A stretch of DNA of 64,000 bases from a cyanobacterium endosymbiont of Rhopalodia gibba (GTDB lineage: Bacteria > Cyanobacteriota > Cyanobacteriia > Cyanobacteriales > Microcystaceae), in contig CP067995.1 in the NCBI GenBank assembly GCA_045159875.1, forward strand, positions 1,536,001 through 1,600,000, written 5' to 3'. Shown one piece after another: positions 2,069-63,728 of this stretch (positions are counted from its first letter, which is position 1; the number at the start of each line of letters is the position of its first letter). The notes beneath the pieces are model-generated. The model saw only the letters and a list, made by a program, of their open reading frames with translations. It was not told the origin of the DNA and searched no databases. The position numbers and the translations under genes are program-made.

Positions 2069-2100
2069 TTGAAGGAGTATTTATTCAAATACTCCTTCAA
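2069..2100. repeat. Palindrome, 14-bp arms, 4-nt loop
   Basis: TTGAAGGAGTATTT-attc-AAATACTCCTTCAA. Confidence 0.9.
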
Positions 2101-2950
2101 ACGGTAATTCTTCCCATAATAGCTAGGTTCTCCCGATAATTTAGTTATCTAATTAAATATTAGAAGAGAATGAAATAAGCTTGAAAGCACGATTAATTTT
2201 AAAAAATAGTTTTCTAATTTTTTAAAATATTTATTGGTTTCTATGTATGAAGATTAATTTGTTTACAAGAAATTTTATCATCAAGTAATCCGATATTGAC
2301 GGCAATTTAATTATTGCAGTTATGAATTATTTGTTTATGTCTTTATTTTTAATCAAAAAATATATTTATATTTTGATACTAGTTCGATATTTTAATTTTT
2401 TTTATGTATTAAGATCAATTTCGATATCCAATCAAAAATTAGATATAAAAAAATACTTAACTTAATTAGAATAACTTACTCATTTAGAGACACAGAAAGT
2501 GAAAGGTTTTAAAAAATGAGAACTATGAGTAGAGTAGAACCTAGTAATTTACCTGTAAAAAAAATAACATTAATTGATTATAAGAAAAAGTTTTTTTCTA
2601 AAAAAATTTAAAAAAAATCATTAAATGGTTTTAAATAAGTCATTAATAAGTTACCAATATTTTATAAACTACTTAAATAAGTTTACCAACGACTGGAACA
2701 ATTTTAATAACAAAAACTCAGTCAAATAAAAGTTTAACTGTTCTACTATGAACATATATTCTTGTATGAGTTAATTATCGGCAAGGTTTTTATTATACAG
2801 AAGGTACCAATTAATACTTTTATCTCAATGAAAATTGATCTTAACTCATTTTTATCAAAACTGTTAGGTTAGAAAACTTAAAATAAAAAAAATAATCATT
2901 GAAGAACTAATAGTAAAATTGCAATAGTAAAAGCGTTAAGTCAAGATAGT

Positions 2951-2990
2951 AGAGATAACAATTAGAATTATAGTTCTAATTGTTATCTCT
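2951..2990. repeat. Palindrome, 17-bp arms
   Basis: AGAGATAACAATTAGAA-ttatag-TTCTAATTGTTATCTCT; preceded by GT, giving GTAG at 2949. Confidence 0.9.
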
Positions 2991-4347
2991 TAGCTCAATT
3001 AATTAAAATATTGAGTTTTAAACTATCTCTTCTACCATTCTACAATCAAAGAGATAAATTTAATTTTTAAGTATTTTAAATTATTAATTTTCATAGTTTA
3101 AAGGCTTAATATATGCCCTTATACCAAAAGACTTTAAGTTGAATTAAATACAAGTTATAAACTATTACAAAGATAACCTAAAGAAAAAATATATGATTTT
3201 TATCATAAAATTACACAGTATTATATTTTATTTTTTATAATTACTGTTACTCCACCAACTATGCCCCTTTCTTTTATAAATAAGCTGTTTTTAACAGCTT
3301 TATAAGTTTTGTAAATAAGAGGACTTGTTAGTAGCGATTACGGGTGAATTTTTTATACAGTGGTACATTGGACGAGAATTAATAAATTCTATACTAGGAT
3401 TTTGTAGTGTTATATTAACATCTTTAGTAAAGACTTATACGTTGGCATAGATAAAAAAGACTTCTGTTTATTTTGAATTTCAATGGAATAAAAAAAAATC
3501 TAACCAATTCATATCTTATACAGGAGACATTTTAAACGTATAAAAACAATTTTACGAGAAGGTTTGCAACATAGAAAAAATCTGCAATTGGAATTTTTAT
3601 CTATTTATATAAAAACTATCCTGACCGAGAAAACTTAAACTTTAAGATAAATTATTACTTACGAGAAACCTATTATAGAAATCAAATAATAACATGTTTT
3701 TATTTGATTAATGAGACGGACAAGTACAGAAGAAAGTAGTTTAATTAATACTTGATTTAATACAAAACTAGCTGAACTTGGTGTTTTGTATAGTCCCAAG
3801 AAAATTTAACTCTTTGGAATACTGTTGGTTATAAATAAATTAACTGTCTTTAATTTCATTGAAAACTTAGAATTTTTTGCATAAAAGCTGATTTATTATC
3901 ATTAATTGTTTCTGCTCTTACTCCATCTTTGGAAATAGATGTTATTTTTTTTGATACTGTTAAATCTAATGGAATAGACTGACCAAACATAGTGCACTTA
4001 TGTACCATCGATAATGGTAATTAATATAGTTTGTCCATCATAAGTTAATTTTCAATTCAGAGACTGTTACTAAACGAAACTTTAAGTAAGTCACATAATA
4101 AGAAAATACAGTTTTTTTAGGTAACTTCTTGACTTTTTTACTTTAAGCCACTTAGATGTTTTTTGAGAATGTTAGTTTAGCGCAATACATCATACAGTTA
4201 TCTTAAGATAACTATTATAAATAGTCTCCTATGAATTCTTTCAAATGAAGAACAATTTGAGTAATTTGCCGCTCTTATTATCTTTCTCGAATTCAGAGAA
4301 AAATTTGTTAAACTTAGAAAATTATAATGGTTGACTGAATTCAAGGT

Positions 4348-5589
4348 TTATCTAAGCAATTGAGGCATTTTTCCGAGTAATCCTGTCATTAATTGTAAAG
4401 AGAACCGTTTAACTAAAGGAAAAGTATTAATTAACCATAATCCAAACCGACGCAATATCATTAATAACCACCACTGATTAGAAAATAAGCGATTCAAAAA
4501 GTCAGTAACCCACAATATGATCCAATTCTCGCTTCTACGCCAGCGTTCATAACGTTTCAACACCTTTAAACTTCCGATATCTTCTCCTTGTTGATGGGCT
4601 TTTTGTAAAACTTCTGCTAAAGCCGCCACATCCCGAATTCCCAAGTTTAACCCCTGTCCTCCCAAAGGATGACAGCAGTGTGCAGCATCCCCGACTAGAG
4701 CAAGCCTGTGGTCTGTATAGCGCTCACTTTGCATTAACTGAACCGGAAATATAAAGCGATCACTGACTAATTCTAATTCTCCTAAAAGTCCTCCAGTCCG
4801 TCGCTGTAACTGACTTAAAAACTCTATTTCGTCTAATTCTTTAATCGTTTTTGCTTGGGCATGAGGAGCTGTCCAAACAATCTGACAACGATTTCCAGGA
4901 AGGGGTAAAATCCCCATAGGTCCCGAATACCAAAATCGTTCAAATGCTATGTCATTGCTCAAGGAGTTATGTTTGACGGTGAAAGTAACACAAGACTGCC
5001 AGTATTTCCACCCTTGAGTTTTAATACCTACTCCTAAACGTATTGGCGACTTTGCTCCGTCAGCTCCTATCACTAATTTACTACGGATTTGCTGTAATTG
5101 TCCCTCCACTTTAACCTTTACTACGGCCTCTGTATCTTGATAGTCCACGGCTATCACTTCAGCCGGACATAGCCATCGAATTTCAGAGGAATCGGCAATC
5201 GCCGTTTGCAGGGTTTCTAGAATCACTTGATGTTCCCCCACATAGCCTAGATAATCTGTTCCAATATCGGTAGTTTTAAACTCAACCACCTGTGGATAAT
5301 CAGCATCAGAAAGGCGAATAGAATGAAATTTTCCAACTTTGGGAAGTATTTTTTTCCAGATCCCAATTGCATCTAAAATACGCACAGACAGTAGGGAGAG
5401 AGCATAAGCTTGAGGTTTGCTGGCGCCCTTCATCTGGACCTGAGCCTCAACAATAATGATTTTTAACCCAGATGTTTTGAGGGCTGTAGCTAAAGTAGTA
5501 CCAATAATCCCTCCTCCTACAATAGTAATATCGTAGTCTGCAGTGTGGTTAGAGAGTGAAATAGAGGTGTCTAGCTGATCGACAGTCAT
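4348..5589 (-). CDS. FAD-dependent hydroxylase, UbiH/Coq6 family
   Basis: IVGGGIIG FAD-binding motif, GADGAKS, LVGDAAHCCHPLGGQGLNLG; likely ATG at 5589. Confidence 0.9.
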   Translation of the reverse strand: MTVDQLDTSISLSNHTADYDITIVGGGIIGTTLATALKTSGLKIIIVEAQVQMKGASKPQAYALSLLSVRILDAIGIWKKILPKVGKFHSIRLSDADYPQVVEFKTTDIGTDYLGYVGEHQVILETLQTAIADSSEIRWLCPAEVIAVDYQDTEAVVKVKVEGQLQQIRSKLVIGADGAKSPIRLGVGIKTQGWKYWQSCVTFTVKHNSLSNDIAFERFWYSGPMGILPLPGNRCQIVWTAPHAQAKTIKELDEIEFLSQLQRRTGGLLGELELVSDRFIFPVQLMQSERYTDHRLALVGDAAHCCHPLGGQGLNLGIRDVAALAEVLQKAHQQGEDIGSLKVLKRYERWRRSENWIILWVTDFLNRLFSNQWWLLMILRRFGLWLINTFPLVKRFSLQLMTGLLGKMPQLLR

Positions 5590-5704
5590 TTTTAAGTATT
5601 TCTTCAGAAAAGTATTTAAAAACATATATTTTTTAATTGTGACGTGAATTTTCTTAATATGCAATGTCATTAATCTACATTTTTATTTAGGACAAAGTAT
5701 TTTG

Positions 5705-6700: not shown

Positions 6701-7551
6701 GTTAAAAAGTCACCTCCATGAGGTTCTCTATTTTTAGGAGTTTAATGGTTGAAAAAACTTGTTTCCCTTAAACTGAATTATAGTACCCTAGGTAAGGATT
6801 TTTTTTGAGTTATTTTTAATAGAACTATACCATACACCATAACTTTTTAAAACCTCAATTTTTCTCACTGAATAAATTTTTATCTTAAAATATTTTTGTT
6901 GCTATTAAAGTCTTCTGATAATTTTTAAAATGTCCTCAATAAATAAGATTTTATCTTACCTTTCAAGTAGTTACTCTTATTAGTATTTCCAAAATCAGGA
7001 AGATTATCAATAGATAATTATATCCTTAGCGTACTGTCAATCTTCCTGGTTTTCTTTGAATTGTCTTTTCCAAATAAAAGCCTCCTCTGTTATTTTTATC
7101 TTTTAGGGGAATAATCAAGTTTTTATTACTATCGTTTATCGGAAACTTCCTCATAACACACTCACATTTTACATCAATATCAAACACAAGATTTAGACGC
7201 CTAAACATAGGTTATACTTTCTTGAATTCTTATTAAGCTAATCTATACTTAATGAATATTGTCTATATGAACTTATGGACAAGAAGCAAAGACTTTTCTA
7301 TTTATTAGGCTGACAATGAACAGCAAAACGAAAGAAATAGAAATGGTGATACTTTCAAGTTTTCAATTACAAAGATTTAAGAGAAATGGACATTTGCAGA
7401 AATAATTACTTCTTGCCGTCCCCAAATGTCTTTTTGGATTAATCCCAAATAATTAAAGAATCAGGCTCTTTGGCAAGCCGGATAGCACACTTCAGAAGAA
7501 ATAAATTATCATGAAGCATAGTTAAAACTTCGTCAATAAGTCGCAGAAATT

Positions 7552-8472
7552 TTAACTATGCTTCATGATAATTGTCAACATCTTCTCCCCTAATATTTTT
7601 GGTTGTTCTATCATAGACATATGACCACAATTAGCCAGTTCAATAACATTACTCCCCTGAACCTCAAAAAGAGGATGAAAACTAGCTAAATAGCGAACAT
7701 ATTTAGGCTCCATTACTGTGTCTTTGTCCCCAGCCAAAAAATAAACAGGTTGTTGCAAACGGGATACTATCTGGGGAAGTAAGTGAACCTCAGTCTCTGT
7801 TGTAGAATCAAGTAAAGATCCCAAAGCAGCTTGAGAATCTGCCTTAAGCAAATCTAGAACCCGTTGTCGTCCCCAACGTCTTTCTAAAGGACGGGCCATC
7901 ATAAGACGAGAGAAAACTACATCAATTAGAGGCACATAAGATAACCAACTGGGTCGATATTTGATTAACCGTTCTCCGGCTGAGCGGAACCGTTCAAATT
8001 CTTCCTTGAGATAAATTCCGCCCCCTGAATTTAGGCAAATAACTCCTTGAACAGTTTCAGGACAAATATCAGCCCCCCACAAGGCAATACTACCCCCCAA
8101 AGAATGGCCAATAAGCCAAGCTCTCTTAATGGCAAATTTTTGTAGGATAACACTTAAATCTTGAGCATAAGCCCCTAAGCTATAAGGAGAGATATTTTTA
8201 GTAAAACTAGGGGGGGCTTGCTGAAACGAAGTTCCCCAATCGATTACCCTGTCTCGATTTAAAGCTTTTCGAACTTGCTGAGAGTCACCAAACCCTCGGA
8301 GATCATAAATTAGACAAGGATAGTTAGGTGCTAATTGCTCAATTAACGGAAACCAATATTGACGGCTCAATAACCATCCATGAATAAAAATCAGTACAGG
8401 GGTAGATGCTTGAAAAGAGGTGGATGTTAGCTCATAGGCGTGAGAAATTCCCAAAATGTCGATGGTTGGCAT
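7552..8472 (-). CDS. Alpha/beta fold hydrolase
   Basis: FIHGWL, DLRGFG, GHSLGG nucleophile elbow, CGHMSM catalytic His. Confidence 0.9.
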   Translation of the reverse strand: MPTIDILGISHAYELTSTSFQASTPVLIFIHGWLLSRQYWFPLIEQLAPNYPCLIYDLRGFGDSQQVRKALNRDRVIDWGTSFQQAPPSFTKNISPYSLGAYAQDLSVILQKFAIKRAWLIGHSLGGSIALWGADICPETVQGVICLNSGGGIYLKEEFERFRSAGERLIKYRPSWLSYVPLIDVVFSRLMMARPLERRWGRQRVLDLLKADSQAALGSLLDSTTETEVHLLPQIVSRLQQPVYFLAGDKDTVMEPKYVRYLASFHPLFEVQGSNVIELANCGHMSMIEQPKILGEKMLTIIMKHS

Positions 8473-17706: not shown

Positions 17707-18331
17707 TTGGTCACGATTTTTTTAAGAACCTGGAGTCGTCAATATCCTTGGTTACATAACACTATTTCACCTTCAACACTCAGAGATGTTGAACGGGAAA
17801 TAGTGTTATGTAACCTTACAATTGAAAATATTCCTATGAAATCTGATACTGGGACTTTAGATTTATGTTATAGCAGAGGTCAAACCACTAACTTTCTTTC
17901 TACTAAACTGGACTTAACGTCTCATCAACTCTCCTATTTCAGGCAGTCAAAGCGGTTTTTGGGGTCAATTATGTTTACGAATGAGCTAAAAATGCCTTTT
18001 GCTCAATTGAAATGTGGTTGAGTTCATACTAGTTTTGCTCTTGTTGCTCTCCACAAAATGTAAGCTAAGCAGCTTGAAAAAATTTTTTACAAGTTTATCA
18101 GATTTTTAACCATAAAGGGGTTTTGACTATAATTGATCTATATAAGCCAACTAAACATTTCGTCTATTTTGTCCATCTTTAACTATTTTTATATGGATAT
18201 TTGAAATGAAGACAGCCTGGAAGTTACTTAACATTGACTTAGTGACAAAGTTCACTTCAGTAGATTTTAGAGGTTGTCAACAACTACTTTATGGAAGAGG
18301 AAGTTTGCAAGTAATTCAAGTTAAGAAATAA
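17707..18331 (+). pseudogene. Class I SAM-dependent methyltransferase pseudogene
   Basis: [22 protein letters not shown] (eroded LDLCCGSGQTT), HTSFALVALHKM, FEMKTAWKLL, GSLQVIQVKK; stops and frameshifts. Confidence 0.8.
17750..17815. repeat. Long hairpin inside the methyltransferase pseudogene
   Basis: GGTTACATAACACTATTTC...GAAATAGTGTTATGTAACC (19-bp perfect arms) with inner TTCAACA/TGTTGAA pairing. Confidence 0.92.
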
Positions 18332-19771: not shown

Positions 19772-19805
19772 AGTGTAGAGATATTTTGTCAAATATCTCT
19801 ACACT
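19772..19805. terminator. REP-like hairpin just downstream of the pfkB kinase gene
   Basis: AGTGTAGAGATATTT-tgtc-AAATATCTCTACACT, 15-bp arms; followed by a T-run on the minus strand. Confidence 0.65.
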
Positions 19806-19827: not shown

Positions 19828-20817
19828 TTAACTTGTTAGTAAAGATTTTAATTCCTCAGTAGTTAAACGAGGTCCATAATTAGTAACAATACGAGAAGAA
19901 GCCCGTGAAGCGAGATCGCCGGCTTGGCTATAGGTCATACCATGGGTGATTCCATAAAGAAATGCTCCCGCATACATATCTCCTGCGCCAACGGTATCAA
20001 TAGCCCGGACGGGATAGGGAGCAATTTCAATTAATACCTGACCATCAAAAACTAATGATCCCTTCGAGCCACAGGTGATAGCAAACCCCTTAGCTATAGT
20101 TTTTAAATAGGCGATTATCTCGGAAACATCTTTCGTATTAGATATTTTTTCGGCTTCTGCTTGATTAGCAAAAATAAAATCTAACCCAGAGCCAATAATC
20201 TTTAATAGCCCATTTTTAAAAAACTCCACTATGTTTGGATCAGATAAGGAAAAAGTGGTTTTTACCCCTGAAGTTTTTGCAATTTCCCTAGCTTTAATGG
20301 CTGCTGCTTGAGCAGTTGGGGAAGTGACTAAATATCCTTCTAAATAAAGATATTCAGAGTCAGAGATTGCTTCGAAGATTAATTCTTGTTCGGATAAATT
20401 GCTCGAAATACCTAAAAATGTATTCATGGTGCGATCAGCATCGGGAGTCACCATAACTATGCATTTTCCAGTGCTTTCCTTTTCGCTATCATCATTGTGT
20501 TCATTAGTGTCTAACCCACACTTGCGTAGATCTTCCAAATAAAATTTTCCTGCTTCATCCGCCGCCACTTTACAAGAATAAAACCCGTTACCACCGAATT
20601 GACTAAGAGCTATCATGGTGTTAGCAGCAGAGCCTCCACTACTTTGCTTACACGGTTGTCCATTAAGTTTTTTTAGTAACTTCTCTTGATGGACTTTATC
20701 CACCAGAGTCATGACACCTTTATCGATGTTTAATACTTGAAGTAATTCTGGTGAAACTTTAAATTCTATATCTACTAAAGCGTTACCAACACCATAAACA
20801 TGATATTTTTTCTCCAT
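19828..20817 (-). CDS. PfkB family carbohydrate/adenosine kinase
   Basis: GVGNALVD, GGSAANT, DADRTMNTFLG, DTVGAGDMYAGAFL; ATG at 20817. Confidence 0.92.
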   Translation of the reverse strand: MEKKYHVYGVGNALVDIEFKVSPELLQVLNIDKGVMTLVDKVHQEKLLKKLNGQPCKQSSGGSAANTMIALSQFGGNGFYSCKVAADEAGKFYLEDLRKCGLDTNEHNDDSEKESTGKCIVMVTPDADRTMNTFLGISSNLSEQELIFEAISDSEYLYLEGYLVTSPTAQAAAIKAREIAKTSGVKTTFSLSDPNIVEFFKNGLLKIIGSGLDFIFANQAEAEKISNTKDVSEIIAYLKTIAKGFAITCGSKGSLVFDGQVLIEIAPYPVRAIDTVGAGDMYAGAFLYGITHGMTYSQAGDLASRASSRIVTNYGPRLTTEELKSLLTS

Positions 20818-21857
20818 GAATACTTTCTTGTCTAACGACAAACCTCTAAAATGTTCAATCATATTTTAGGACAACATAGAGCATTCGCATTATAACTTTA
20901 GTGAATTGAGCAGTAAACAAGATTTAATACAAGCTACCAATTAAGGTCAAGAGAAACTATTTTTATAATGTTAATTAATGTAGTTTTTTTAAAAAAATAA
21001 AAGTAGCTAAACTCCATAATTATCTTGTCTGAAATTTATTGTGTAATTGGTTGATAATATTTTAGAGATACATGACTAAATCAATTAAACTTTTACAAAA
21101 ACCGATTAAAATTATTTCAGACTTGGAATCATTGAATAAAAATAAAATACTATAAACTATTTTTATGACTTTAATAATAACTTAATCTTCAAGGTTAAAG
21201 GGTCTTGAAGTTAAGGAAAGTTACTCTACAAAAAAATACTCAAAAAATCTTTAAATTAAGAAATAATGGCGATATAGATAAAAATTCTTGATCTTATCTA
21301 TTAAACATAATCCTAAAAAGACAACAATATTTGCTAATCAAAATGTAGGTATTCGAGCTAAAATATAAACATTTTGACTATAAAATAGATATCAATACTA
21401 ACTACAAATGATCTTTTTAACGAGATTATTAACGACTTTTTAAAACTACTTAGTTAAAAAGTTAAGTAAAATATAGCAATAGCAGCTAAGTAGAACTAGT
21501 GCGGCTTTAATCTTACTGTCAATAGGCTAAGTTAAACTTTCTATTACTGTTGATAAGCTTATTCTAATTGAGAATAGTAATAATTTTGTTATTTCTAGTT
21601 TAGAAGAGCTAGAATCATCAAAAGATTGTCATTGTTTTTAGTTACGTAAATTGTCCGTTCTTTAATCTAAGGTTTATTCATCTACAGAAACTACAGTTAT
21701 TTAATAGACTTACATAATCGCTTCTCTTGTTTATTCATGATTCAAAAACAAAGGAGAAAAAACAGATACTACAATTTCTGCCTTCTCTCCCTATGTAAGT
21801 CTTAAGTGACTTAAGGCTAAATACTACTAATTTTTACTACCAGATACCTAAACAATG

Positions 21858-26302: not shown

Positions 26303-26341
26303 AGCTTTCAGGGTAAAATTAATAATTTTACCCTGAAAGCT
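26303..26341. repeat. Palindrome, 19-bp arms, 1-nt spacer
   Basis: AGCTTTCAGGGTAAAATTA-a-TAATTTTACCCTGAAAGCT, followed by AC (CTAC end). Confidence 0.92.
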
Positions 26342-26871: not shown

Positions 26872-26913
26872 TAGGATATTTTCAAAATAATATATTATTT
26901 TGAAAATATCCTA
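26872..26913. repeat. Perfect 42-bp palindrome
   Basis: TAGGATATTTTCAAAATAATA|TATTATTTTGAAAATATCCTA, followed by C (CTAC end). Confidence 0.93.
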
Positions 26914-29703: not shown

Positions 29704-30096
29704 AAAAAATTCAGGCTAAAAACTATCTACCAATAATCTTATTACCGATCATTAAATTAATTTTTTAACTATCAAAATAACAACCACAGTCTATTCATTT
29801 TAATAAGGCTCTGTTTTAGATACAATGAAGTTGACAACTGCTCTAAAAGGTAACCGTTAATATTTAAGACTATAGTTGTTGTTTAAACATGCATGCGAAC
29901 AAATAAAGCTGATTTATCTTTCTGACTATCTCTTGGTTTCAGGCTAAAAAGACAAGTTTTCTGTAGGTGGTTAGTCAAAAAAGAAGTTAATAAATATAGT
30001 TTTAAACATTCCGATTGATCTAAATTAATTTTTAATCAATCTAAGTGTTTTAATCTAAAAACACTTACGAAGTGAAATTTTATAAATTAGTTTGAC

Positions 30097-30138
30097 TAAA
30101 TAATTACTTATCTTCAACTGAAGATAAGTAATTATTTA
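30097..30138. repeat. Palindrome, 20-bp arms; a smaller 10-bp-arm hairpin lies at 30042-30067
   Basis: TAAATAATTACTTATCTTCA-ac-TGAAGATAAGTAATTATTTA. Confidence 0.92.
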
Positions 30139-31122
30139 TATTTTTTGTTTATAGAGCTTTTCCAAGAGTTCTTGAGCAATAAATTTTGAATCTTTAAAAA
30201 ATTGGTCAGTTAAATTCCTGCATCAACCCAAAAACAATTTTACGGTTATTTATGTTCTCTGGAGTTAATTTAAAAACTAATAATTCACTGCAATTGTTTA
30301 TCACTAAATTTAGTTTAAATTCTTAACACTGTTACAGAGAATTTTATATCCATCCAATCTACAATCTAAGTTTTTAAAAACTCGGTATGCTCTACTGAAA
30401 GACTGATAGAAAGTCTCTATTGGAGCAGAAACAATGAAACTAATTCGTGTAATTTTTCCTTTCCCAGGATACAAGCTTCACACAATGATTATCGCTAACT
30501 AGATTAGGAAATACTTTTTGCACTTATAATAAGTTCAATTTTTCAAAGATCCGATATCATAGCCAATAAAAAATAATTATTATAAGTATAATATCGCCTA
30601 TTTTTTAAATAAAAATTAAATTTTTTTAAAAAAAGCTAATACTGTTAATCAAAGAATGTAATAATAATATTGTCGTAATTTTTGATATAAGTACTCTAGC
30701 TCGCAAAATACTTTAGTAGGATCAAGACAGACCTTTATATCTAAAGTACTAGATCTTAATAAACGCTATTTTGAGCATACAGCTTTTTTGATCGACCAAA
30801 CCATCTCTTAGATATTTTAAGTATCGAGATAAGCTTTAATTTTATTAATTTATCTATCTATTAGATGATAACTCTTTTAAAAATATTAATAAGCAGTTTG
30901 TGTACATTTTAGAAATTTATCAAAAAATTTATTATTTATCGTCTAAAAATTAATTTTTTTTATATTTTCTTTTATTTTATACATATTTTCGAAGATAAAG
31001 TACACGGTCAAAACTTTCTCTATCTTAGCTTTATTTGTGTTACCCAAGCTTTTTTTTAAAGTTAAAAATATTTAATATAACTTATACCAACTAGTTTTTT
31101 ATCTCTTTTTTAAGCTTTAAAT

Positions 31123-33481: not shown

Positions 33482-33524
33482 ATTTTCTATGGTGTTTAAT
33501 TTAAAATTAAACACCATAGAAAAT
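33482..33524. repeat. Palindrome, 21-bp arms, 1-nt spacer
   Basis: ATTTTCTATGGTGTTTAATTT-a-AAATTAAACACCATAGAAAAT. Confidence 0.93.
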
Positions 33525-41398: not shown

Positions 41399-43028
41399 AT
41401 TAGTTACTGAGACTCCTTAACTCATTGATAATTTTTAATCACTGTTTGGTGAGAGATTGACTTTTAGCTCAAAAATTGACTAAGTCATTTCCGAACTTAC
41501 AATTGTACCATTTTACTCTCAACTTCAGTAAATTGTTAGAATCGTTATTGTATTTAGACTCAATTGATATATGCAAAGAATAGTTAAATGCGAATATTAC
41601 CTATTTTTTGGGTATTTATTCCAATCTTTCAGTCTTATGACAAGAGCTTGGAGTTGGTCAATCACAAAATTTTATTGCCAGCATTGAGTTTAATTACCGT
41701 TACTAGCATTTTATCCTAAACCTAAGAATTTAAACTTTATGAGCGTAACATTTAAGACATAACCGAAGAAAAATGGGATTGGGCACAACTTATCGTTTCC
41801 TAAGCGATGCTCATGCATAAATTAAATTTATTTTGACAGATTTAAGAAGTTATACGACGAGATAAAGCTATTGCTGTAGAAGATTTTTACCCCACATCAG
41901 TCCCTTTAAAAGCTCAAAAAGTGCATGCAAACTTCTTGGTTTTAGGGAAAGAAAAATTGTTTCTTCTTCTGGCTGTCAAAGTATTAGGATACGGAAAGAC
42001 TGGAGGAGTAGTTCCTATAACTGAAAAGCCTAGTGTTACTATGATCTCTATTTCTCGCTACGATTTACTGGAGTTCATATATCTATACATCGATTCAGTT
42101 TTTATAAAAGTTTCCTTTTCATTGCTAATTTGCTTACATCATTGTTCTCTATAAACGCAAACCTCACATTAAAACTATTAGCTAAATTTTATGATAGTCA
42201 ATGGTTTTTTAAATCAAAAAAAACAATATTACATTTTTACTTAAACAATTAATAATTTTAAAAAAATAACATCTACATTCTTTTGGGTTTAATACAGAAG
42301 TGCCTGTTGATTTCTAGCAGAATATTAATTTTATTAAATTAATATTTTAGTTTAATTTTGGTATTTTTTTCTTAAACTTTAAAATTACCAATAAAGAGAA
42401 CTTAAAACTAACAAAAAAGTTTAAAATACACGTATTTGTGTGACTGATACTGCAATACCTTGATTAATACCAGTTAATTTTTAATAGCTGTTTTTTCTGC
42501 AGTTTTTATAAAAAAATAGGCAGCTCTATGTATTATTCGGCTTGTGGAAGATACGGCAATTTCTATCTGTCATGTTTGGTATGTCACAAGCTCTTCCCTA
42601 TACTGTTGTATGGCATTTTGAGAAAAAAAGAATGACTGTAGGTTTACACTAAAAAGACATTAATCAATGTACCTTAATGAACTTTATTCCCAGTCATCTT
42701 ACCGGAAAAATTCTTCAAGAGTGGATTGAAGCTTTATAGATTTTGCTCAAATGAAGGAATCTTCTTAGAACATGCCTATGATTGTTTTCTGAAAATGAAT
42801 GTTTCTCAGTGTCATCTCTCCTTAAAGTTACTTAGTTGGCTTCATTTACACGATTCAGTGATTATTGTTTGGTAATAAGAATTTAAATGAAAACTCTATT
42901 GACAGTCTCAGCATTTTTTCTTTAAAAAAGAAATTTAAATAAAATTAAATAACAGTTGTAAAAGCTTACGACTAGAAAAGTATAACAATCGTTAATGAAG
43001 ATTAATGATTTGGCGTTAATAATTGATA

Positions 43029-48984: not shown

Positions 48985-49026
48985 CAATTCCACAATTACT
49001 AAATTAATTTAGTAATTGTGGAATTG
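48985..49026. repeat. Perfect 42-bp palindrome
   Basis: CAATTCCACAATTACTAAATT|AATTTAGTAATTGTGGAATTG. Confidence 0.93.
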
Positions 49027-49250: not shown

Positions 49251-49284
49251 CTATTTAGGCTAGTCCTGGGACCAGCCTAAATAG
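49251..49284. repeat. Near-perfect 34-bp palindrome
   Basis: CTATTTAGGCT-a-GTCC-tg-GGAC-c-AGCCTAAATAG. Confidence 0.85.
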
Positions 49285-50701: not shown

Positions 50702-51751
50702 ATGAGCACCCTATTGCGTGATTTTTGGTATGTCGCTTTACCTGGTAAACAATTAAGACCAGGTGAAATGGTTCATAAGAAAATGCTCGGCGAACCCATT
50801 TTAGTTGGACGGCGTAAAGATGGGGAAGTATTTGCTATGCGTGATATTTGCCCCCATCGAGGAATCCCCTTGCAATATGGATGGATGGAAGGGGACAATG
50901 TATGTTGTCGTTACCATGGTTGGAAGTTTAGCACTCATAATGGGAGTTGTAAGGAAATTCCTTCTTTAACTGAACATGACGATTTAGATATTAGTCGTAT
51001 TCGGGTTCCTACCTATGCTTGCCGAGAAGTTCAAGGAAATATCTGGGTCTATTTTGCGACGGATACTGACAGAGAAACTGATTTAGCTAAAATTCCCCCA
51101 GTTCCTACTATCCCAGATTTTGGTAGGGTCGAACCTGGAATTTCCGAAGTCATCCATTTTACCTGTAATATTGACCACGCTATTATTGGACTAATGGATC
51201 CAGCCCACGGTCCTCACATTCATAGTTCTTGGTGGTGGCGTAGTGGTCCACAAAAATTTCGAGTTAAAGAAAAGCAATATGAACCTGTTACTCAAGGATT
51301 TCGTCTTGTCCCCTATGATATGCCGGTGAGTGCACGCCCTTATAAACTCTTAGGAGATAAGGTTTCTATTGAAATTATCTTTCAATTACCGAGTGTACGA
51401 ACAGAAATTTTAAGAGGTGATCGCTATTCTGCCTGTTTATTAACCACTATTACTCCTATTGATGAAAACGAATGTGAGGCTTTTCAGAGCATTTATTGGA
51501 CTATTCCTTGGATAGGAGTTTTTAAACCTTTATTGGGGTTCTTAACCCGTCAATTTCTGACACAAGATCGTGATGCGGTAATTCAACAAGGAGAAGGGCT
51601 AAGCCACAATCCTGCATTAATGTTGATTGATGATGCAGATACTCAAGCAAAATGGTATTTTCGTCTAAAACAAGAATATCAAAAGTCTAAAGCAGAAAAT
51701 CGACTCTTCAAGAATCCAGTAGAACCGAGAATATTACGCTGGCGTAGTTAA
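50702..51751 (+). CDS. Rieske non-heme iron oxygenase (ring-hydroxylating alpha-subunit family)
   Basis: Rieske CPH...CRYHGW; mononuclear iron site DPAHGPHIH; GAGGAGG RBS upstream. Confidence 0.9.
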   Translation: MSTLLRDFWYVALPGKQLRPGEMVHKKMLGEPILVGRRKDGEVFAMRDICPHRGIPLQYGWMEGDNVCCRYHGWKFSTHNGSCKEIPSLTEHDDLDISRIRVPTYACREVQGNIWVYFATDTDRETDLAKIPPVPTIPDFGRVEPGISEVIHFTCNIDHAIIGLMDPAHGPHIHSSWWWRSGPQKFRVKEKQYEPVTQGFRLVPYDMPVSARPYKLLGDKVSIEIIFQLPSVRTEILRGDRYSACLLTTITPIDENECEAFQSIYWTIPWIGVFKPLLGFLTRQFLTQDRDAVIQQGEGLSHNPALMLIDDADTQAKWYFRLKQEYQKSKAENRLFKNPVEPRILRWRS

Positions 51752-51843: not shown

Positions 51844-51887
51844 AATTCCAAGAACTAGATTTTCATAAAGATCTAGTTCTTGGAATT
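51844..51887. repeat. Palindrome, 17-bp arms
   Basis: AATTCCAAGAACTAGAT-n10-ATCTAGTTCTTGGAATT; about 90 bp after the Rieske gene, followed by Ts. Confidence 0.9.
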
Positions 51888-53403: not shown

Positions 53404-53459
53404 CTCACTTAAGAGTTAAACGGCTTAAATTATTTTAAGCCGTTTAACTCTTAAGTGAG
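53404..53459. repeat. Palindrome, 26-bp arms, 4-nt loop
   Basis: CTCACTTAAGAGTTAAACGGCTTAAA-ttat-TTTAAGCCGTTTAACTCTTAAGTGAG. Confidence 0.95.
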
Positions 53460-54409
53460 GTAGCCTGTAGTATTTATAGATTCCATTCCTAGAGAATTAT
53501 CAAGCATTTTAAGTAATCTATTTATTTTTTATATTTTACTTTTTTTAATTCCTATATTTACTTATTTATTTGAATCTACTCTTAGTAGAGAATGACTCGT
53601 TCTTATCTTAACAGGAGTAACTGAATCAGTTATAAATTATTTTAATGACTGAGGTTTTTAAGTATTTGCTTTTTGGACTAAACTACTCAATATTGTTTTT
53701 ATTGATTGTTTATACGTTCAATATTTTAAACTACATTATTTATGCAATTATTTAAAATTTTTTAATAGTTTTTGCATTGATACATTTTAGTTTATTTATT
53801 TGCCCCAAAAAGCTTAGCTCTTCTATAGATTTTCCTCCACATTGACTATGTCTTATTTGGGAAGAACTAATTTCAAGATAGATAGTTTTATATTCTATAA
53901 GAAAATATTTAATGCTTAACTATCATATAAATAAAATTTTTTAGTATTTTAATCGCAATAAATATAATTTTATATTCGGTATATTTTTTAAATAAATAAA
54001 ATTACTAAATTTTGTATAATTTATCATTTAATAATGGATAATAGTAATTTTTTATAGATTAAATATCTCGTTTATTGAACTAAGTTTTATGTCTTATATT
54101 ATAGTCATAAATAGAGTAAAAATATTAGAAATAGTATAATTTAATTTCAATAAAAAACTACTAAAATATCTCCCATATAATAATTATAGTTCTTTGTAAG
54201 CTTATCTATTGATACTCAAATTTTATCTTGATATTTTTTATTTCTACAGAATAAGTTTAGTAAGACGAAATTTATTAATAAAATTTAGAGAAATTTTGGA
54301 AAAACCTCGGCAATATTCATTGTAGTAACAGTAAAATCTAAGAGACTATTATTACAATGATAACCTAGAAAATTACTATAAAGTCAATTTTTAGTTAAAA
54401 GTCTTCTTC

Positions 54410-57959: not shown

Positions 57960-58405
57960 AAATATCTCTATTTATAGGTATTTTAATATAAATAACGGCT
58001 ATTTTTTACCCATTAAAAATAAAAACTTTTATCTAAACTGATATTGAGCGTTCGTTAGGGATTAGTGCCAATAACTGTGTAAATTGTGAGGCAAACGCTT
58101 TCGATTTTTCTACAGCTGCAAACAGTTTAGATTTTTCTAGATTGAACTTTTTTGAGGTAAGCCTTAATACGGCTGTTCTCATTAGTATCGACTTCACAGG
58201 TGCTAACTTCAGTGGTGCCGACTCAGAGCTAATCTCAGTAATGCAAACTTCGAGAGAACCAATATAGCCAAGACTAACTTTGTCGAAGATAATTTGACCG
58301 GAGCTAATCTTAGTGAATTCGAAACTACCAATATTAACTTGGGAGGAGGAAACGGAAAAGTTTATTTTAGAGGTTCTACGATCACTCAACAACAACTAAA
58401 TAATT
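57960..58405 (+). pseudogene. Pentapeptide repeat protein pseudogene
   Basis: NNCVNC then DFTGANFSGAD, a frameshift, then RANLSNANFERTNIAKTNF..NLTGANLS. Confidence 0.8.
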
Positions 58406-59525: not shown

Positions 59526-59566
59526 GTACTATTTACCATTTAAAGTACTATTTACCATTTAAAGTA
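59526..59566. repeat. Perfect 19-bp tandem duplication
   Basis: GTACTATTTACCATTTAAA x2, followed by GTA. Confidence 0.92.
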
Positions 59567-59853
59567 TAATTTAATTATCAAAATATTTAAATAACAAAAG
59601 TATCTTAGCTAAAAAAATTTTAGAAAGCTATCTTAATATAGAATTAGAATAATTACTGTTAATTAACACAAAACAAATAAACAGTAAGCTAAAATAATAA
59701 AAACTTACTAAATAAACATTTTAAAAATAAAATATTTAACAATAAATTTCAAGATATTTTTAAAAATTAAATATTCAATAAATTAAAATTTTTATAATAT
59801 TTTATTAGACATAAAACTGGATTAATTACTTATGAGTATTTAAACTAAAAAAC

Positions 59854-59884
59854 TTTATTAATCTCTAAATTAGAGATTAATAAA
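59854..59884. repeat. Palindrome, 15-bp arms
   Basis: TTTATTAATCTCTAA-a-TTAGAGATTAATAAA. Confidence 0.88.
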
Positions 59885-61036: not shown

Positions 61037-61086
61037 TTATCTAAATAATTTAGCAAAAGATATCTTTTGCTAAATTATTTAGATAA
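61037..61086. repeat. Perfect 50-bp palindrome
   Basis: TTATCTAAATAATTTAGCAAAAGAT|ATCTTTTGCTAAATTATTTAGATAA. Confidence 0.95.
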
Positions 61087-61107
61087 CTTTGATGTTTTTT
61101 TATAAAA

Positions 61108-61142
61108 ATTAGTAAATATTTGTCGCACAAATATTTACTAAT
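61108..61142. repeat. Palindrome, 16-bp arms
   Basis: ATTAGTAAATATTTGT-cgc-ACAAATATTTACTAAT. Confidence 0.9.
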
Positions 61143-61370
61143 AAAATAAGTCATAAATTTTGGGTTTAATTAATAAATTGATCTTATATTTATAAGGATA
61201 AAAATTGTAGCTGAAGACGCGGAAACTGAATTAGAATTAAACTAACTAAAATAGCTAAGTTCTAAAGATTATTAGAGTTATATATTTATAAAACTCTTAG
61301 CAACAAATTATGTAGGCACTTTACTAAAAAATCTTCTACATTGACGTGTGTTAAAGTGAGCTGTTTTTTA

Positions 61371-61401
61371 CGAGTAAGGTGGGAAATACCCACCTTACTC
61401 G
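61371..61401. terminator. REP-like hairpin abutting the SH3 gene stop codon
   Basis: CGAGTAAGGTGGG-aaata-CCCACCTTACTCG. Confidence 0.65.
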
Positions 61402-61917
61402 TTATTCTACTTTTTGGACATTGCCCGCTTTAACCCAACCTTCTTGGCCATTGCCGGAAAGACGAACATTTTGCCAGTCTCCATCGAGACTCGTCTTTAA
61501 AATAATCACTTCATCTTTGTAATCAAGACCCCCGATCCTTTGAGCATCTTCGCCAGGTTCGGCCCGTAAACTTAATCCATTAGGCCAAATAACAGAGGCT
61601 TTATAAGCCCCGGACGGCAAATCCTTTTCTTTTTCTTCTTTTTCTTCCTCAATTTCGGGAGAAGATTGAGTTTGTTGAGCAGCTATTTTTTCTTGAGATT
61701 TTTCTTCAGATTTTTTAGCCTTTTGTTGGACGTTAGACTCAAGGTTAGACGCCTCTACAGCTTTTTCTTCTTTTTCTTCGACGAAAGTAGGTTTTGGAGG
61801 CAAGGTATTTAAACGATAAAACACTACATAAGCCAAAGCTGTAGTCCCGCTAACAAGTAGAAGAATCCCTACAAAGAATCCTAAAATAAATTGTAAAAAG
61901 ACAGAGAAATATTTCAT
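61402..61917 (-). CDS. Membrane-anchored SH3b domain protein
   Basis: N-terminal TM, charged linker, WPNGLSLRAEP..RIGG..W..V..EGWVKAGNV; ATG at 61917. Confidence 0.85.
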   Translation of the reverse strand: MKYFSVFLQFILGFFVGILLLVSGTTALAYVVFYRLNTLPPKPTFVEEKEEKAVEASNLESNVQQKAKKSEEKSQEKIAAQQTQSSPEIEEEKEEKEKDLPSGAYKASVIWPNGLSLRAEPGEDAQRIGGLDYKDEVIILKTSLDGDWQNVRLSGNGQEGWVKAGNVQKVE

Positions 61918-62014
61918 AATTGTTTCAAAATTAAACTTTAAAACTTGACATAAATAAGACAGTAACTCCAAATCCCGAACTAAGTTGATCGTAAATGATA
62001 TTACAGTAAACGAC

Positions 62015-63360
62015 TTATGCCGGAAGCTGGACTAGCTTACTCTGCAGCAGCCTGGTCTTCAACAAACTTGATTTGTTTTTAGGCAGTTCTTGTCAAAAAA
62101 ATAATTTGACTGGCAAGTCTCTAAGATACGCTCAGAGATAAAACCCTGGTTTTGGACAAAGCCAATGTACATTGCCTCAATCAAAGTTCATTCTACTTCT
62201 GTCCTAGGAAAATCAGGTGTTTCATAGGCTAACTGCTTGATCTTGTAGTTTTTCAAGTTATGAGGTTAGAGTCTAGATGGAGAGACGTTAAAAATAGTTT
62301 CACGTTCCTCTTGTATAGGCAAACTCACAAAAAAAATTTCATCAAAGGAGTTTTTGCAAAACATTTTAGGGGGTAAAGCTGAACATTATTAGCCATCGCC
62401 ACTACAAACATTGGAAACCATTTTTCCGCTAACCAGGTGATAAGAATTTCAAAAAACCGACTGGTAGTTCTGTTATCTTCTTTACTATCGACTCCTCAAA
62501 CTCTTGATTAATTTCATAAATCCACAATACGCAAGGACTAGGACTTCTACAAGATTAATCATTTGACGGGTATGAAAATTCTGATTTTTCTATTAATTAT
62601 CCAAATAACCGCTCTATATTCAGACGTAACGGAGATCAATTCAAGTGTATGAAATATAGCTCTCACGCTGAGAGATTTTCAGTTTCTTATATTCTTACTA
62701 AGAGTAAACTCTAGAAATAGAGTAGTCTATAGCCTACTCTATTTCTGATTACATGTCTTTCCTTACTTTAATAACTAGTCTTTAAAGCTGTCTAAATTAC
62801 CTACTATTATAAATTTGTTCAGTGATAAGATATAAAGTTTAGAATCTAGATCTGATAGATTAATTTTTAACAGATTAATTGAAGTCTCTCTTCAAAAATA
62901 AGTTTTAAGTTTTTAGGTTCAAGTCTATCGTGACTAGTGACTTAATAGCTTAAGACATTACTAATACGTTTTAACGAAAGTTCTTAGAAAAAATAAACTA
63001 ACTCATCTAAGAGTCTATCGGGTAAGGATTGCCCAGTGGAAGTTGGTAAATATTTTGCCCTAGTTTCAATGTCACTGGTTATGAGAAGGAGAAAGCTAAC
63101 TAATCCTGAAATAATTTGTCGATAAATTCTAAGACTTACAAAGGAAGCCGTCCACGAAGTTCCAAATTAAAACATATGTGGAATAATGCCTCAAGGGTTG
63201 AACATATTGGGTAGATTGTCCGTTTAACTTGTCCCTAATTTAGAGATTTCAATTATAAATTAAAGACAAGTTATTAATAATACTTGAAATTCTTCATTAA
63301 AAGATATTTTTAGTGATTAGTGATCCATTATTTCGTTATTAGCTTATGTCTGAAGTTTAA
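62015..63360 (-). pseudogene. Ycf46-type AAA ATPase pseudogene
   Basis: PL*VLEFIDKL, GNLDSFKD*LL, LLLVRI*ETEKSL (eroded Walker A), SFDEIFFVSLP..EERETIF, PDFPRTEVE; upstream of the SH3 gene. Confidence 0.85.
62713..62746. repeat. Near-perfect 34-bp palindrome inside the AAA ATPase pseudogene
   Basis: AGAAATAGAGTAG-t-CTATAG-c-CTACTCTATTTCT. Confidence 0.88.
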
Positions 63361-63633
63361 CTATTTGTTGAAAATAAGTAAGTTTTTTCCTCAAAATTAA
63401 AGCTTAATGCTTTTATTGAAAATAAATTATTTTCAATAATCTGCTAGTTCTCCATCCTAGCTATTTTTTATTCCTTCATTTAAGATTGCTCTTGAAATAA
63501 TTAGAATTTTAAGCCTTAGACATTAATAAAGTTAAATTTAAAGCTATTAATTAATTGTTTTAACAGAGTCAATCCATTTAAGAATTAAATCAAGATAATT
63601 GGTCTTTTAAATTGCTGTATTTTAAGGACAGGT

Positions 63634-63678
63634 TTAATGATACTATATATAATAGTCAATTATATATAGTATCATTAA
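63634..63678. repeat. Palindrome, 20-bp arms, 5-nt loop
   Basis: TTAATGATACTATATATAAT-agtca-ATTATATATAGTATCATTAA. Confidence 0.92.
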
Positions 63679-63688
63679 CTAAAAAAAA

Positions 63689-63728
63689 TATTCTAAACCC
63701 TAATTTATATAAATTAGGGTTTAGAATA
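63689..63728. repeat. Perfect 40-bp palindrome
   Basis: TATTCTAAACCCTAATTTAT|ATAAATTAGGGTTTAGAATA. Confidence 0.93.

Follow-up and report, generated by a model that had tools for sequence, protein, structure and literature searches.

Inverted repeats in the window and along the chromosome

The window, a 64-kb stretch, belongs to a reduced cyanobacterial endosymbiont genome of 3.06 Mb and 34% G+C, only about half of which lies in long ORFs. An earlier note had listed palindromes at 21 positions of the window, and all 21 hold an inverted repeat (Table 1). Sixteen are perfect repeats with arms of at least 13 nt, three are near-perfect (17750, 51844 and 49251) and two are short (30042 and 42321), each of them weak taken alone. 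The four palindromes described as lacking a loop (26872, 48985, 61037 and 63689) were borne out. Two further inverted repeats, at 63413 and 7504, were absent from that list. The hairpin previously placed at 61371 starts exactly at 61370.

Table 1. Inverted repeats of the window (lengths in nt; positions are those of the window; G001, G003 and G006, related genomes; X2, an independent DNA run)
Position	Arms and loop	Gene context	Relatives or reads
2069..2100	perfect, arms 14, loop 4		imperfect counterparts in G006 and G003
2951..2990	perfect, arms 17, loop 6; alternatively arms 20, 95%, loop-free		part of left arm missing in G003
7504..7573	arms 28, 96%, loop 14	overlaps 3' end of ORF 7552-8472 (-)	
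17750..17815	arms 29, 93%, loop 8	in unverified 104-codon ORF; 36 nt from ferrochelatase ORF start	
19772..19805	perfect, arms 15, loop 4	23 nt downstream of ORF 19828-20862 (-)	conserved hairpin
26303..26341	perfect, arms 19, loop 1		counterpart in G006 just 47% paired
26872..26913	perfect, arms 21, loop-free		G006, gap over left arm; G003, no palindrome
30042..30067	perfect, short, arms 10, loop 6		
30097..30138	perfect, arms 20, loop 2		right arm kept in G003 and G006, left arm more different; one-sided differences 4 v 1
33482..33524	perfect, arms 21, loop 1		most differences from G003 on left arm
42321..42346	arms 11, loop 4, A/T only		
48985..49026	perfect, arms 21, loop-free		right arm closer to relatives than left arm
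49251..49284	arms 16, 94%, loop 2		
51844..51887	arms 20, 95%, loop 4	93 nt downstream of ORF 50702-51751 (+)	hairpin in G006 and G001 too
53404..53459	perfect, arms 26, loop 4		spanned by X2 contig
59854..59884	perfect, arms 15, loop 1		X2 has T instead of A in the one-base loop (59869)
61037..61086	perfect, arms 25, loop-free		imperfect repeats at same place, other letters
61108..61142	perfect, arms 16, loop 3		
61370..61402	G+C-rich hairpin, arms 14, loop 5	abuts stop of ORF 61402-61971 (-)	conserved, 3 compensatory pairs in G003
62713..62746	perfect, arms 13, loop 8		7/7 one-sided differences from G003 on right arm
63413..63439	perfect, arms 13, loop 1		
63634..63678	perfect, arms 20, loop 5		
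63689..63728	perfect, arms 20, loop-free		

As proposed earlier, we compared the chromosome with composition-matched shuffles (10 shuffles within 50-bp blocks) and found 321 perfect inverted repeats with arms of at least 14 nt and loops of up to 8 nt, against 0.4 per shuffle. When mirror repeats were scanned for in the same way, as a control on the unshuffled sequence, 15 rows from three loci were returned. The longest arms reach 38 nt, and counts drop sharply for spacers longer than about 15 nt. The palindromes mostly share no sequence, as had been claimed: 258 of the 321 were singletons in an all-against-all BLAST, and the single 31-member cluster was chained through A/T runs. They also avoid intact genes, with only 7 inside ORFs of at least 100 codons, which make up 52.6% of the chromosome, and 314 outside, although 17750 sits in an unverified ORF. 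Many were said to be far from gene ends. Indeed, from 500 nt on, repeats and random non-ORF positions were distributed alike in their distance to ORF ends, and placement relative to these ends was random beyond about 100 nt; 8.3% of repeats followed an ORF end at a distance of up to 30 nt, versus 2.9% of random non-ORF positions, and 61370 directly abuts a stop codon. The neighbouring pseudogenes described earlier were not recognisable as such, Pfam matches being obtained for just 2 of the 84 stop-to-stop fragments searched near the palindromes of the window; the flanks do diverge by about 23-25% between sister genomes.

The symmetry frequently runs straight through the centre, since 127 of 199 even-centred repeats with a loop of at most 2 nt were loop-free (expected fraction 0.33, P=4e-19). 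Consistent with the remark that they lack the GC stem of an intrinsic terminator, most palindromes have stems rich in A/T (arm G+C averages 0.22) and lack a T-run, with no enrichment of T-runs at palindromes (12.5% vs 8.5% of random sites). A simple scan made 15 terminator-like calls versus 6.0 in shuffles, and a search for a shared centre or end motif among the palindromes found none. In imperfect copies, 61% of the mismatches were transition-type, G.T (116) was about as frequent as A.C (100) and strand consistency was absent (12 same, 19 mixed), a pattern of ordinary decay and not of RNA wobble.

Orthologous loci in related genomes

Four reduced genomes had similar densities, from 21.5 to 30.6 palindromes per 100 kb of non-ORF DNA. 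The comparison with free-living relatives that had been suggested was made with a 400-kb sample of one free-living-size relative, G007, in which no arm of at least 18 nt was found where 7.7 were expected (P=5e-4). No perfect arm in this sample exceeded 14 nt, and five of the eight longest belonged to one repeated family; G007 carries a REP-like palindromic family, GTAGGGG...CCCCTAC. Away from gene ends, 153 palindromes were compared, and 63% of their pairs are retained in the best relative versus 29% in control pseudo-arms. Since 56-63% of pairs persist in relatives against these 29%, many loci were imperfect repeats before the four reduced genomes split from their common ancestor. Only 10 of 315 comparisons away from gene ends were at least 90% paired. 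Between sister genomes the arms diverge like the flanks (0.245 vs 0.231) and are nonetheless perfect in the focal genome, in agreement with the previous inference that symmetry rather than sequence is created or kept. Orthologous loci decay neutrally in sister genomes. Compensatory changes, the counting of which had been proposed earlier, accompanied conserved hairpins in a minority at gene ends, while the remainder decay in sisters. This minority right behind intact genes probably represents true conserved RNA hairpins of terminator or 3'-end type.

Multi-base rewriting with templated indels was observed in single lineages after events were polarised by comparison with several relatives. In G003, a palindrome with 21-nt arms and a 4-nt insertion (32786) lies inside a dead CorA gene, the counterpart of which is an intact 384-409-codon ORF in G006, G001 and G004; overall, at least two palindromes are located within dead genes. 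The same genome has a templated insertion of 6 nt at 135154 and 1 against 8 changes at 342525. The left arm of G000 C1:2584982 was rewritten with a 7-nt insertion, compared with both G006 and G007, and a single arm was rewritten at G001 38821 and 22218, one of the two with a 3-nt indel. At 17750 in the window, the reverse complement matched four relatives better than the forward sequence (53/47, 53/48, 52/44 and 44.5/39.5 of 66), and in the alignment the inner part was inverted and the outer right arm perfected, which could be explicable by one switch. Focal-lineage insertions inside arms affected 36 of 111 palindromes versus 19 of 166 control pseudo-arms (odds ratio 3.7, P=2.6e-5), at 9.9 events per kb in arms versus 3.2 in their own flanks.

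Origin of the palindromes

Most probably, short-range template switching during replication, also named quasi-palindrome correction or templated inverted copying, makes and re-perfects inverted repeats in unconstrained DNA, where point mutation erodes them. The polymerase would briefly take the complementary or nascent strand as template, a few bases away, and a stretch would be overwritten or lengthened with the exact reverse complement of the adjoining sequence. One step could thereby yield a perfect Watson-Crick repeat, in many cases paired across its centre. Imperfect repeats already present would be a preferred substrate, and old loci would therefore be re-perfected in one lineage and decaying in others. 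Products in unconstrained DNA would be lost through ordinary point mutation and deletion alone, and those within genes would be selected out. The hundreds of one-off perfect palindromes in the non-coding DNA look like scars of DNA-copying slips, in which one side of a repeat is written from the other, rather than a new functional element. Template switching was among the causes raised earlier, and it is favoured by the lineage-specific rewritten arms, the templated insertions, the one inversion and the excess of loop-free centres. Regarding the enzymology, we infer replication slippage rather than repair synthesis, and a rough estimate, assuming a steady state, would be one event per 117 point substitutions. 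Of sbcCD, recJ and mutSL, which the earlier note had named for checking, none is lost and all are intact, and no gene loss was found that could account for the difference between the reduced genomes and G007.

Template-switch mutation has been modelled by Ripley and, in a four-point model, by Loytynoja and Goldman. The mechanism itself is already known from the literature (PMC8794818, PMC5941160). In the template-switch mutations or quasi-palindrome correction described there by Monttinen and Loytynoja (PNAS 2022; PMC8794818), a nearby reverse-complement copy replaces or extends a stretch in one event; imperfect inverted repeats are perfected, the spacer can be inverted, indels are templated and the range is short. 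We saw these hallmarks at single loci. The palindromes studied here differ in being hundreds of long (arms up to 38 nt), unique and perfect sequences in bacterial non-coding DNA, and in showing repairs on both arms with rare paired double changes, unlike one simple event per locus. Perfect inverted repeats are likewise over-represented in proteobacterial non-coding DNA, far above null models, with an excess that grows with arm length to about 150-fold at 13 bp or more in E. coli, and the authors favour preferential imperfect-to-perfect correction through template switching (Lavi et al., GBE 2018; PMC5941160). However, those arms were all shorter than 20 bp (mean 5.75 bp), with the repeats themselves often conserved between species, whereas ours reach 38 nt and most loci are perfect in a single genome only. 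Intrinsic terminators and 3'-end stabilising hairpins resemble the minority at gene ends (61370, 19772, 51844 and 7504), some of which have G+C-rich stems with loops of 3-8 nt and all of which belong to the hairpins kept across genomes with compensatory changes; the majority are A/T-rich, often loop-free, unconserved, unlinked to gene ends and without a T-run.

Several statistics fit simple arm rewriting badly. The focal-lineage changes, as aligned, are unlike what a single rewrite of a whole arm at each locus would leave: in 111 palindromes, 264 one-sided repairs were spread over the two arms at random (chi2 42.0, df 43, P=0.51), did not form patches (96 runs vs 99.2 in shuffles) and had no left-right polarity (136 against 128). 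Arm asymmetry relative to the best relative was not clearly higher than in control pseudo-arms (chi2/df 1.83 vs 1.49; mean |idL-idR| 0.148 vs 0.125, P=0.10), and in a first small set lineage-specific changes were not commoner in arms (0.158 and 0.078) than in controls (0.190 and 0.084). Paired double changes affected 30 of 1003 ancestrally paired pairs (3.0%; 4 of 299, 1.3%, under a strict rule), whereas, if arms were copied from each other without bias, a value close to that of lineage-specific change in the flanks (13.3%; 8.5% strict) would be expected. The polarisation rests on four genomes related by a near-star tree (distances 0.175-0.201) and on alignments of A/T-rich DNA with 41-64% of pairs uncallable, and some apparent repairs may reflect parallel GC>AT changes in relatives.

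Such a scarcity of paired double changes would be given by purifying selection on pairing, and repair of ancestral mismatches on either arm at random is classical stabilising selection on a stem. Most palindromes could be kept by selection, either as RNA hairpins stopping or insulating transcription in a genome that lacks Rho and is rich in dead DNA, or as DNA cruciforms with their own role, with template switching supplying the raw material at most. Rho was over the cut-off in none of eight genomes of the genus, the terminator-like calls exceed those in shuffles, and RNA-library contigs cover non-coding DNA, some stopping at palindromes, two with adapter letters (49011 and 62722), which is a weak hint. 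Nevertheless, we consider this explanation unlikely. Sampling palindromes that are perfect today excludes by construction every lineage-specific pair-breaking change, and the corresponding loci of sister genomes decay as fast as the flanks, so any function would need to be specific to a single lineage, and this for dozens of loci in every 500 kb. The random position relative to ORF ends, the presence in dead genes and the absence of T-run enrichment, G-U preference and strand consistency also argue against it, and a hairpin does not need pairing through the centre. In addition, free-living-size relatives are equally without Rho, yet the 400-kb sample lacked such palindromes. Transcription-stopping hairpins, as envisaged earlier, fit only the minority at gene ends.

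It is still less probable that the palindromes are relics, terminators or regulatory hairpins of since-dead genes inherited from a free-living ancestor and left in non-coding DNA. The pairs kept in relatives and the conserved hairpins at the ends of intact genes agree with such an ancestry, which would account for the origin of some loci but not for their present perfection. Relics should erode like their surroundings, and the chance of 38 sites remaining unchanged at the flank rate is about 0.005. Moreover, the templated insertions, the loop-free centres and the arms of 20-38 nt are novel, and the sample of the free-living-size relative offers no perfect arm of comparable length.

Remnants of mobile elements, either terminal inverted repeats of IS or miniature elements joined by internal deletion or REP-like repeats, are very improbable: a transposase DDE fragment lies 70 nt from 30097 (E=1.6e-5, below the Pfam cut-off) and REP or MITE-type families, such as that of G007, also consist of short palindromic units in intergenic DNA, but their members are alike in sequence, which the clustering already contradicts here, no centre or end motif is present and the arms are orthologous to ordinary flanking DNA of relatives. 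Finally, assembly or amplification artefacts in the form of fold-back chimeras can practically be dismissed, because the De Bruijn contigs of public runs that break or fold back at loop-free palindromes (X6 joint 61036/61086; ends at 49011, 61047, 61066 and 63717) do so where a 31-mer graph must fold back, contigs of run X2, from another study, span 53404-53459 and 59854-59884, and similar palindromes occur in four other closed assemblies of related genomes, some at orthologous places.

Perfect palindromes in a reduced chromosome

The chromosome of the window's own genome (G000) measures 3,058,178 bp, with a G+C content of 0.339, and is accompanied by a second contig of 6,464 bp; the window occupies C1:1536001-1600000. 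ORFs of at least 100 aa cover only 52.6% of this chromosome, and the long ORFs of the window are cyanobacterial, including NAD(P)H-quinone oxidoreductase subunit 4, CtpC, FtsZ, Mfd, ferrochelatase and RsmB. Judged from its sequence, the profile is that of a genome-reduced cyanobacterial endosymbiont. The same genus holds further closed reduced genomes (G001, 3.07 Mb; G006, 3.02 Mb; G003, 2.79 Mb; G004, 2.48 Mb) as well as larger, free-living-size genomes of 4.6-5.2 Mb (G007, G002 and G005). The window is collinear with the reduced genomes, with protein identities of 80-93%.

An earlier note had listed 21 palindromes in the window, and we found an inverted repeat at every one of these sites, 16 of them perfect with arms of 13-26, three near-perfect and two short (Table). 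The four described as loop-free are indeed so, and two further palindromes were absent from that list. Across the G000 chromosome, 321 perfect repeats with an arm of at least 14 and a loop of at most 8 were detected, compared with 0.4 per genome in ten composition-matched shuffles within 50-bp blocks. Their mean arm G+C content was 0.22, 80 had no loop, and arm lengths were distributed almost evenly from 15 to 26, with a maximum of 38. When mismatches were allowed, 658 repeats were found against about 22 in shuffles. A mirror-repeat control, which retains all real low-complexity features, gave 15 rows from only three loci in the same scan; the chief contributor to these hits was a TTATTT microsatellite with some 11 units. 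The palindromes were distributed along the whole chromosome and, as the note had claimed for those of the window, outside genes, with only 7 of 321 inside ORFs. Enrichment immediately past ORF ends was only slight (8.3% within 30 nt vs 2.9% of random sites), and from 500 nt on their distance to ORF ends did not differ from random. The observation is thus real and striking.

Among repeats with arm spans of at least 22, 90 were perfect, and 21, 24, 13, 6, 4 and 3 carried one to six mismatches, respectively. Under steady birth and neutral decay this series should be flat. That perfect copies are in surplus suggests either that near-perfect repeats are efficiently re-corrected, or that palindromes are lost fast, or that the rate has risen recently. 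As a rough estimate, which assumes that perfection is lost through point substitution alone, a count of 309 perfect copies in 1.38 Mb corresponds to roughly one event for every 117 point substitutions.

Symmetry arising in single lineages

In a large set of 228 palindromes, 196 lay off gene ends, and 153 of these had an alignable relative. The proportion of pairs kept in this majority class was 63% in the best relative and 56% over all comparisons, vs 29% for control pseudo-arms, and only 10 of 315 comparisons were at least 90% paired. Arms and flanks had diverged to a similar extent (0.245 vs 0.231). The rarity of well-paired counterparts in relatives and arm divergence at the flank rate indicate that each instance of symmetry belongs to a single lineage and that the underlying sequence drifts neutrally. 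This bears out the main inference of the note, that symmetry rather than sequence is made or kept: the repeats are perfect in the focal genome, and their arms diverge at the flank rate in relatives. A simple fit of the pair tallies suggests that the common ancestor already held imperfect repeats, about 80% paired, at many loci, in which case many palindromes would go back to old quasi-palindromes that a single lineage has made perfect, and would not be entirely new. The orthologous segment lay inside an intact ORF of a relative in 1 of 66 cases, a test of low power because most dead genes are shared.

Several features point to a templated origin at the DNA level. Of 199 even-centred repeats with a loop of at most 2, 127 were paired through the centre, vs an expected fraction of 0.33 (P=4e-19), a property needed by no hairpin function. 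The palindrome-making process acts over a short range, with counts per spacer nucleotide of 37 for spacers of 1-4 nt and about 1-2 for those of 16-60 nt. Mismatches in imperfect copies were 61% transition-type, with G.T (116) and A.C (100) about equal and no strand consistency, resembling strain variants from contigs of public sequencing runs (63-71% transitions); this spectrum is that of ordinary point-mutation decay.

In a perfect palindrome, any derived stretch is by construction the exact reverse complement of its neighbour, which makes this likeness informative only where changes can be polarised. Several neighbouring changes in one lineage, with the outgroups in the older state, were seen at G001 38821, G003 342525, G000 C1:2584982 and G003 32786, and similar loci are detailed in the Table. 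Focal-lineage insertions inside arms affected 36 of 111 palindromes (9.9 events per kb in arms vs 3.2 in their own flanks); among control pseudo-arms, 19 of 166 had them, which gives an odds ratio of 3.7 (P=2.6e-5). The inserted letters all pair with the opposite arm, which is beyond what compensation by point mutation can do. The state of the repeat at 17750 is exactly that expected from one reverse-complement copying of its left two-thirds, which we infer to have been a single event. A census of loop inversions gave 4 of 26 informative comparisons in favour of the reverse complement, some of them weak. Of the two causes that the note had offered, template switching or selection for hairpins, the polarised single loci, the templated insertions and the inversion at 17750 favour the former. 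An existing imperfect repeat would be perfected or extended by reverse-complement copying from the adjacent arm. These events may originate in replication.

The favoured mechanism is a known one, here at an unusual scale. Template switching has been described by the Ripley model and the four-point model, and in E. coli it shows exonuclease dependence. One study describes template switching that both creates perfect stems and fixes existing ones (PMC8794818). According to a second paper, perfect repeats in E. coli non-coding DNA are over-represented about 150-fold at arms of at least 13; no arm there reaches 20 bp, and template-switch correction is the explanation that its authors put forward (PMC5941160). 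Our full-text literature searches found no description of the present phenomenon, and the words palindrome, inverted repeat and hairpin are absent from the main text of the genome papers on diatom endosymbionts that were searched. If the template-switching reading holds, these genomes would preserve a natural archive of such mutations in a bacterial setting, with hundreds of dated, independent events in neutral DNA and four collinear sisters to polarise them. The rate, length and geometry of events could then be set against point mutation, and one could ask why a perfect repeat remains perfect and whether new hairpins are recruited as terminators in an endosymbiont becoming an organelle. It would also caution annotators against taking every long perfect palindrome in a decaying genome for a functional site or a mobile element.

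Table. Positions of palindromes and neighbouring features (G000 is the window's own genome, with window positions unless C1 is given; G001, G003 and G006 are reduced relatives; G007 is of free-living size)
Genome	Position	Feature	Observation
G000	7504-7573	Palindrome	Absent from the earlier list
G000	63413	Palindrome	Absent from the earlier list
G000	17750	Near-perfect repeat, 66 nt	Inner part inverted and outer right arm perfected relative to relatives
G000	17707-18021 (+)	Unverified 104-codon ORF	Contains the repeat at 17750
G000	49251	Near-perfect repeat
G000	51844	Near-perfect repeat
G000	30042	Short repeat
G000	42321	Short repeat
G000	30097-30138	Palindrome	70 nt from the fragment at 30209-30322
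G000	30209-30322 (-)	38-aa fragment	Resembles transposase DDE domain PF13612 (E=1.6e-5, below gathering score)
G000	about 32463-32559	CorA magnesium-transporter gene	Broken
G000	53404-53459	Palindrome	Spanned by a contig of DNA run X2
G000	53692-54286	Dispersed repeat	Many matches at 65-70% identity in G000, G001, G006 and G003
G000	59854-59884	Palindrome, single loop base at 59869	Spanned by a contig of DNA run X2
G000	61370-61402	Hairpin, G+C-rich stem	Abuts stop of ORF 61402-61971
G000	C1, about 1,400,582	TTATTT microsatellite
G000	C1:2584982	Palindrome	7-nt insertion and rewritten left arm, vs reduced G006 and free-living-size G007
G001	22218	Palindrome	One arm rewritten, plus a 3-nt indel
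G001	38821	Palindrome	Left arm 0.50-0.56 vs right arm 0.89-0.94 identity, three relatives
G001	296083	Palindrome	At least 8 inserted letters
G003	32786	Palindrome	Clustered changes and a 4-nt insertion vs four relatives, inside dead CorA gene
G003	135154	Palindrome	6-nt insertion matching the opposite arm
G003	342525	Palindrome	1 vs 8 changes
G003	C1, about 208,786	CorA gene	Broken
G006	L012:13182-14333	CorA gene	Intact ORF, as in G001 and G004
G007	C1:4599153-4600235	Extra RecQ-like copy	342 bits
G007	C1:1605663-1606727	Extra RecQ-like copy	290 bits

Alternative readings: hairpin selection, terminators and mobile elements

Simple rewriting of whole arms does not account for all of the data. 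Using agreement of at least two relatives to polarise changes, we classified 1,284 callable pairs (879 were uncallable) in 111 palindromes off gene ends: 973 were ancestrally paired and unchanged, 264 were one-sided repairs of an ancestral mismatch, 30 had changed on both sides as a unit and 17 were other. Under a strict rule requiring all three relatives to agree, the same classes held 295, 42, 4 and 3 pairs, with 624 uncallable. These counts come from A/T-rich alignments on a near-star tree with homoplasy, parallel GC>AT changes reaching 0.188 per G/C site. Repairs fell at random across both arms (P=0.51), formed no patches (96 runs vs 99.2) and showed no replication polarity of the rewritten arm (136 vs 128). 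Arm asymmetry relative to the best relative was not clearly above controls, and an early small analysis revealed no excess of lineage-specific changes in arms. The population pattern expected of template switching, with changes on one arm or in contiguous patches, was therefore not seen, in a test made less powerful by noisy alignments, by uncallable pairs and perhaps by multiple events. Unit changes affected 3.0% of ancestrally paired pairs (strict 1.3%), vs a lineage-specific change of 13.3% in flanks (strict 8.5%), and choosing currently perfect palindromes hides every change that breaks a pair. Because whole-arm rewriting or unbiased correction also copies the new mutations of the template arm, unit changes should approach the flank rate, and the observed rate was lower.

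Part of this misfit is noise or design. Stabilising selection on the stem would produce just such a pattern of repairs and unit changes. We consider it unlikely, if worth stating, that template switching runs at a high rate (about one palindrome-making event per hundred point substitutions) and that fresh perfect hairpins are in addition favoured or protected. Perfect hairpins might stop read-through transcription where Rho is lacking and half the genome is dead DNA; alternatively, perfect palindromes might be self-proofreading. In both cases, the rarity of change at paired positions and the repair of mismatches on either arm would be explained. If true, template switching would be a main driver of sequence turnover and, in addition, a source of new RNA 3'-end elements on the way to an organelle, for which chloroplast genes, with their 3' inverted repeats, offer a comparison.

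Hairpins that directly follow intact ORFs show the behaviour of RNA structures under selection. Where both partners of a pair had changed, pairing persisted in 30 of 35 cases for the gene-end class of a 64-70-kb set and in 18 of 28 for that of a 470-504-kb set, and in the latter 16 of 57 comparisons were at least 90% paired. The pairing of the hairpin at 61370 is fully kept in G003 via three compensatory pairs; it has the stem and loop of a terminator, with a T-rich tail on the + strand, opposite to the adjoining gene. The palindromes thus include a minority of genuine gene-end hairpins, and only these combine a position just downstream of a gene with a conserved structure. The majority lack both this placement and the form of an intrinsic terminator (G+C-rich stem, loop of 3-8 nt, U-tract), and T-rich tails were found at 12.5% of palindromes vs 8.5% of random sites, with no T-run signature. 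The conserved repeat at 17750 is situated 36 nt past the ferrochelatase ORF start (17714), its flanks are 85-86% identical in three relatives, and the surrounding region may be a regulatory leader.

REP, MITE or insertion-sequence end repeats would occur in many copies and were rejected, as 258 of the 321 palindromes are BLAST singletons (273 clusters), in line with the note's statement that most share no sequence; no centre or end motif suggesting a nuclease or transposase was present in them. Pfam named little in the neighbourhood, with 2 hits among 84 flanking fragments. The dispersed repeat at 53692-54286 is probably an eroded mobile element.

Clade comparison and assembly

Perfect repeats with arms above 14 were absent from a 400-kb sample of the free-living-size G007 (56,844 non-ORF bases, G+C 0.396), where 7.7 with arms of at least 18 would be expected at the G000 density (P=5e-4), a comparison limited by the small size and higher G+C content of the sample. 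Five of the eight longest repeats in this sample belong to one GTAGGGG...CCCCTAC family, which is REP-like, with five copies in the 400 kb (L026, L036 and L041); no member was seen among the palindromes of the reduced genome. Non-ORF DNA makes up 45% of the reduced genomes vs 14% of the G007 sample. The plainest account of the clade difference is that, per base, unconstrained DNA is eight times more abundant in the reduced genomes, which purge little, although this alone leaves the higher density per non-coding base unexplained.

Loss of repair genes was rejected as a cause. None of the genes named in the earlier note has been lost: sbcC, recJ (two copies), mutS and mutL are intact in all eight genomes, and sbcD and recQ in all five searched. 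Only one of eight genomes yielded xseA, which is missing from G000 and equally from two genomes of free-living size, G007 and G005; none of five, a free-living-size relative among them, yielded the ExoI C-terminal domain. Rho likewise gave no match over the cut-off in any of eight genomes; its equal absence from those of free-living size excludes its loss as the cause. The sole repair-gene difference seen was the two extra RecQ-like copies of G007, lacking in the four reduced genomes searched, which could bear on hairpin handling.

An assembly artefact is very improbable, given contigs of X2, a DNA run from another study, that span two window palindromes, and palindromes of the same kind in four independently assembled relatives (21.5-30.6 per 100 kb of non-ORF DNA). 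Contigs of public runs break at loop-free palindromes, from which we draw no evidence because a 31-mer graph must break there. In X3, an RNA library, contig ends lie in or beside palindromes (61382-62722, 62724-63644, 49011/49015 and 50519), with adapter letters at two of them (49011 and 62722); one contig extends from the loop of the hairpin at 61370-61402 to the palindrome at 62713, and depth steps from 154 to 58 across 62722/62724. These ends and the step may be RNA ends, reverse-transcriptase stops at hairpins or mere graph breaks, and the cover of non-coding DNA by this library may be DNA carry-over. Of note, X2 reads T for A at 59869, which, with a loop of 1 nt, amounts to an inverted hairpin; in this run, A>T is a rare change (4 of 72).
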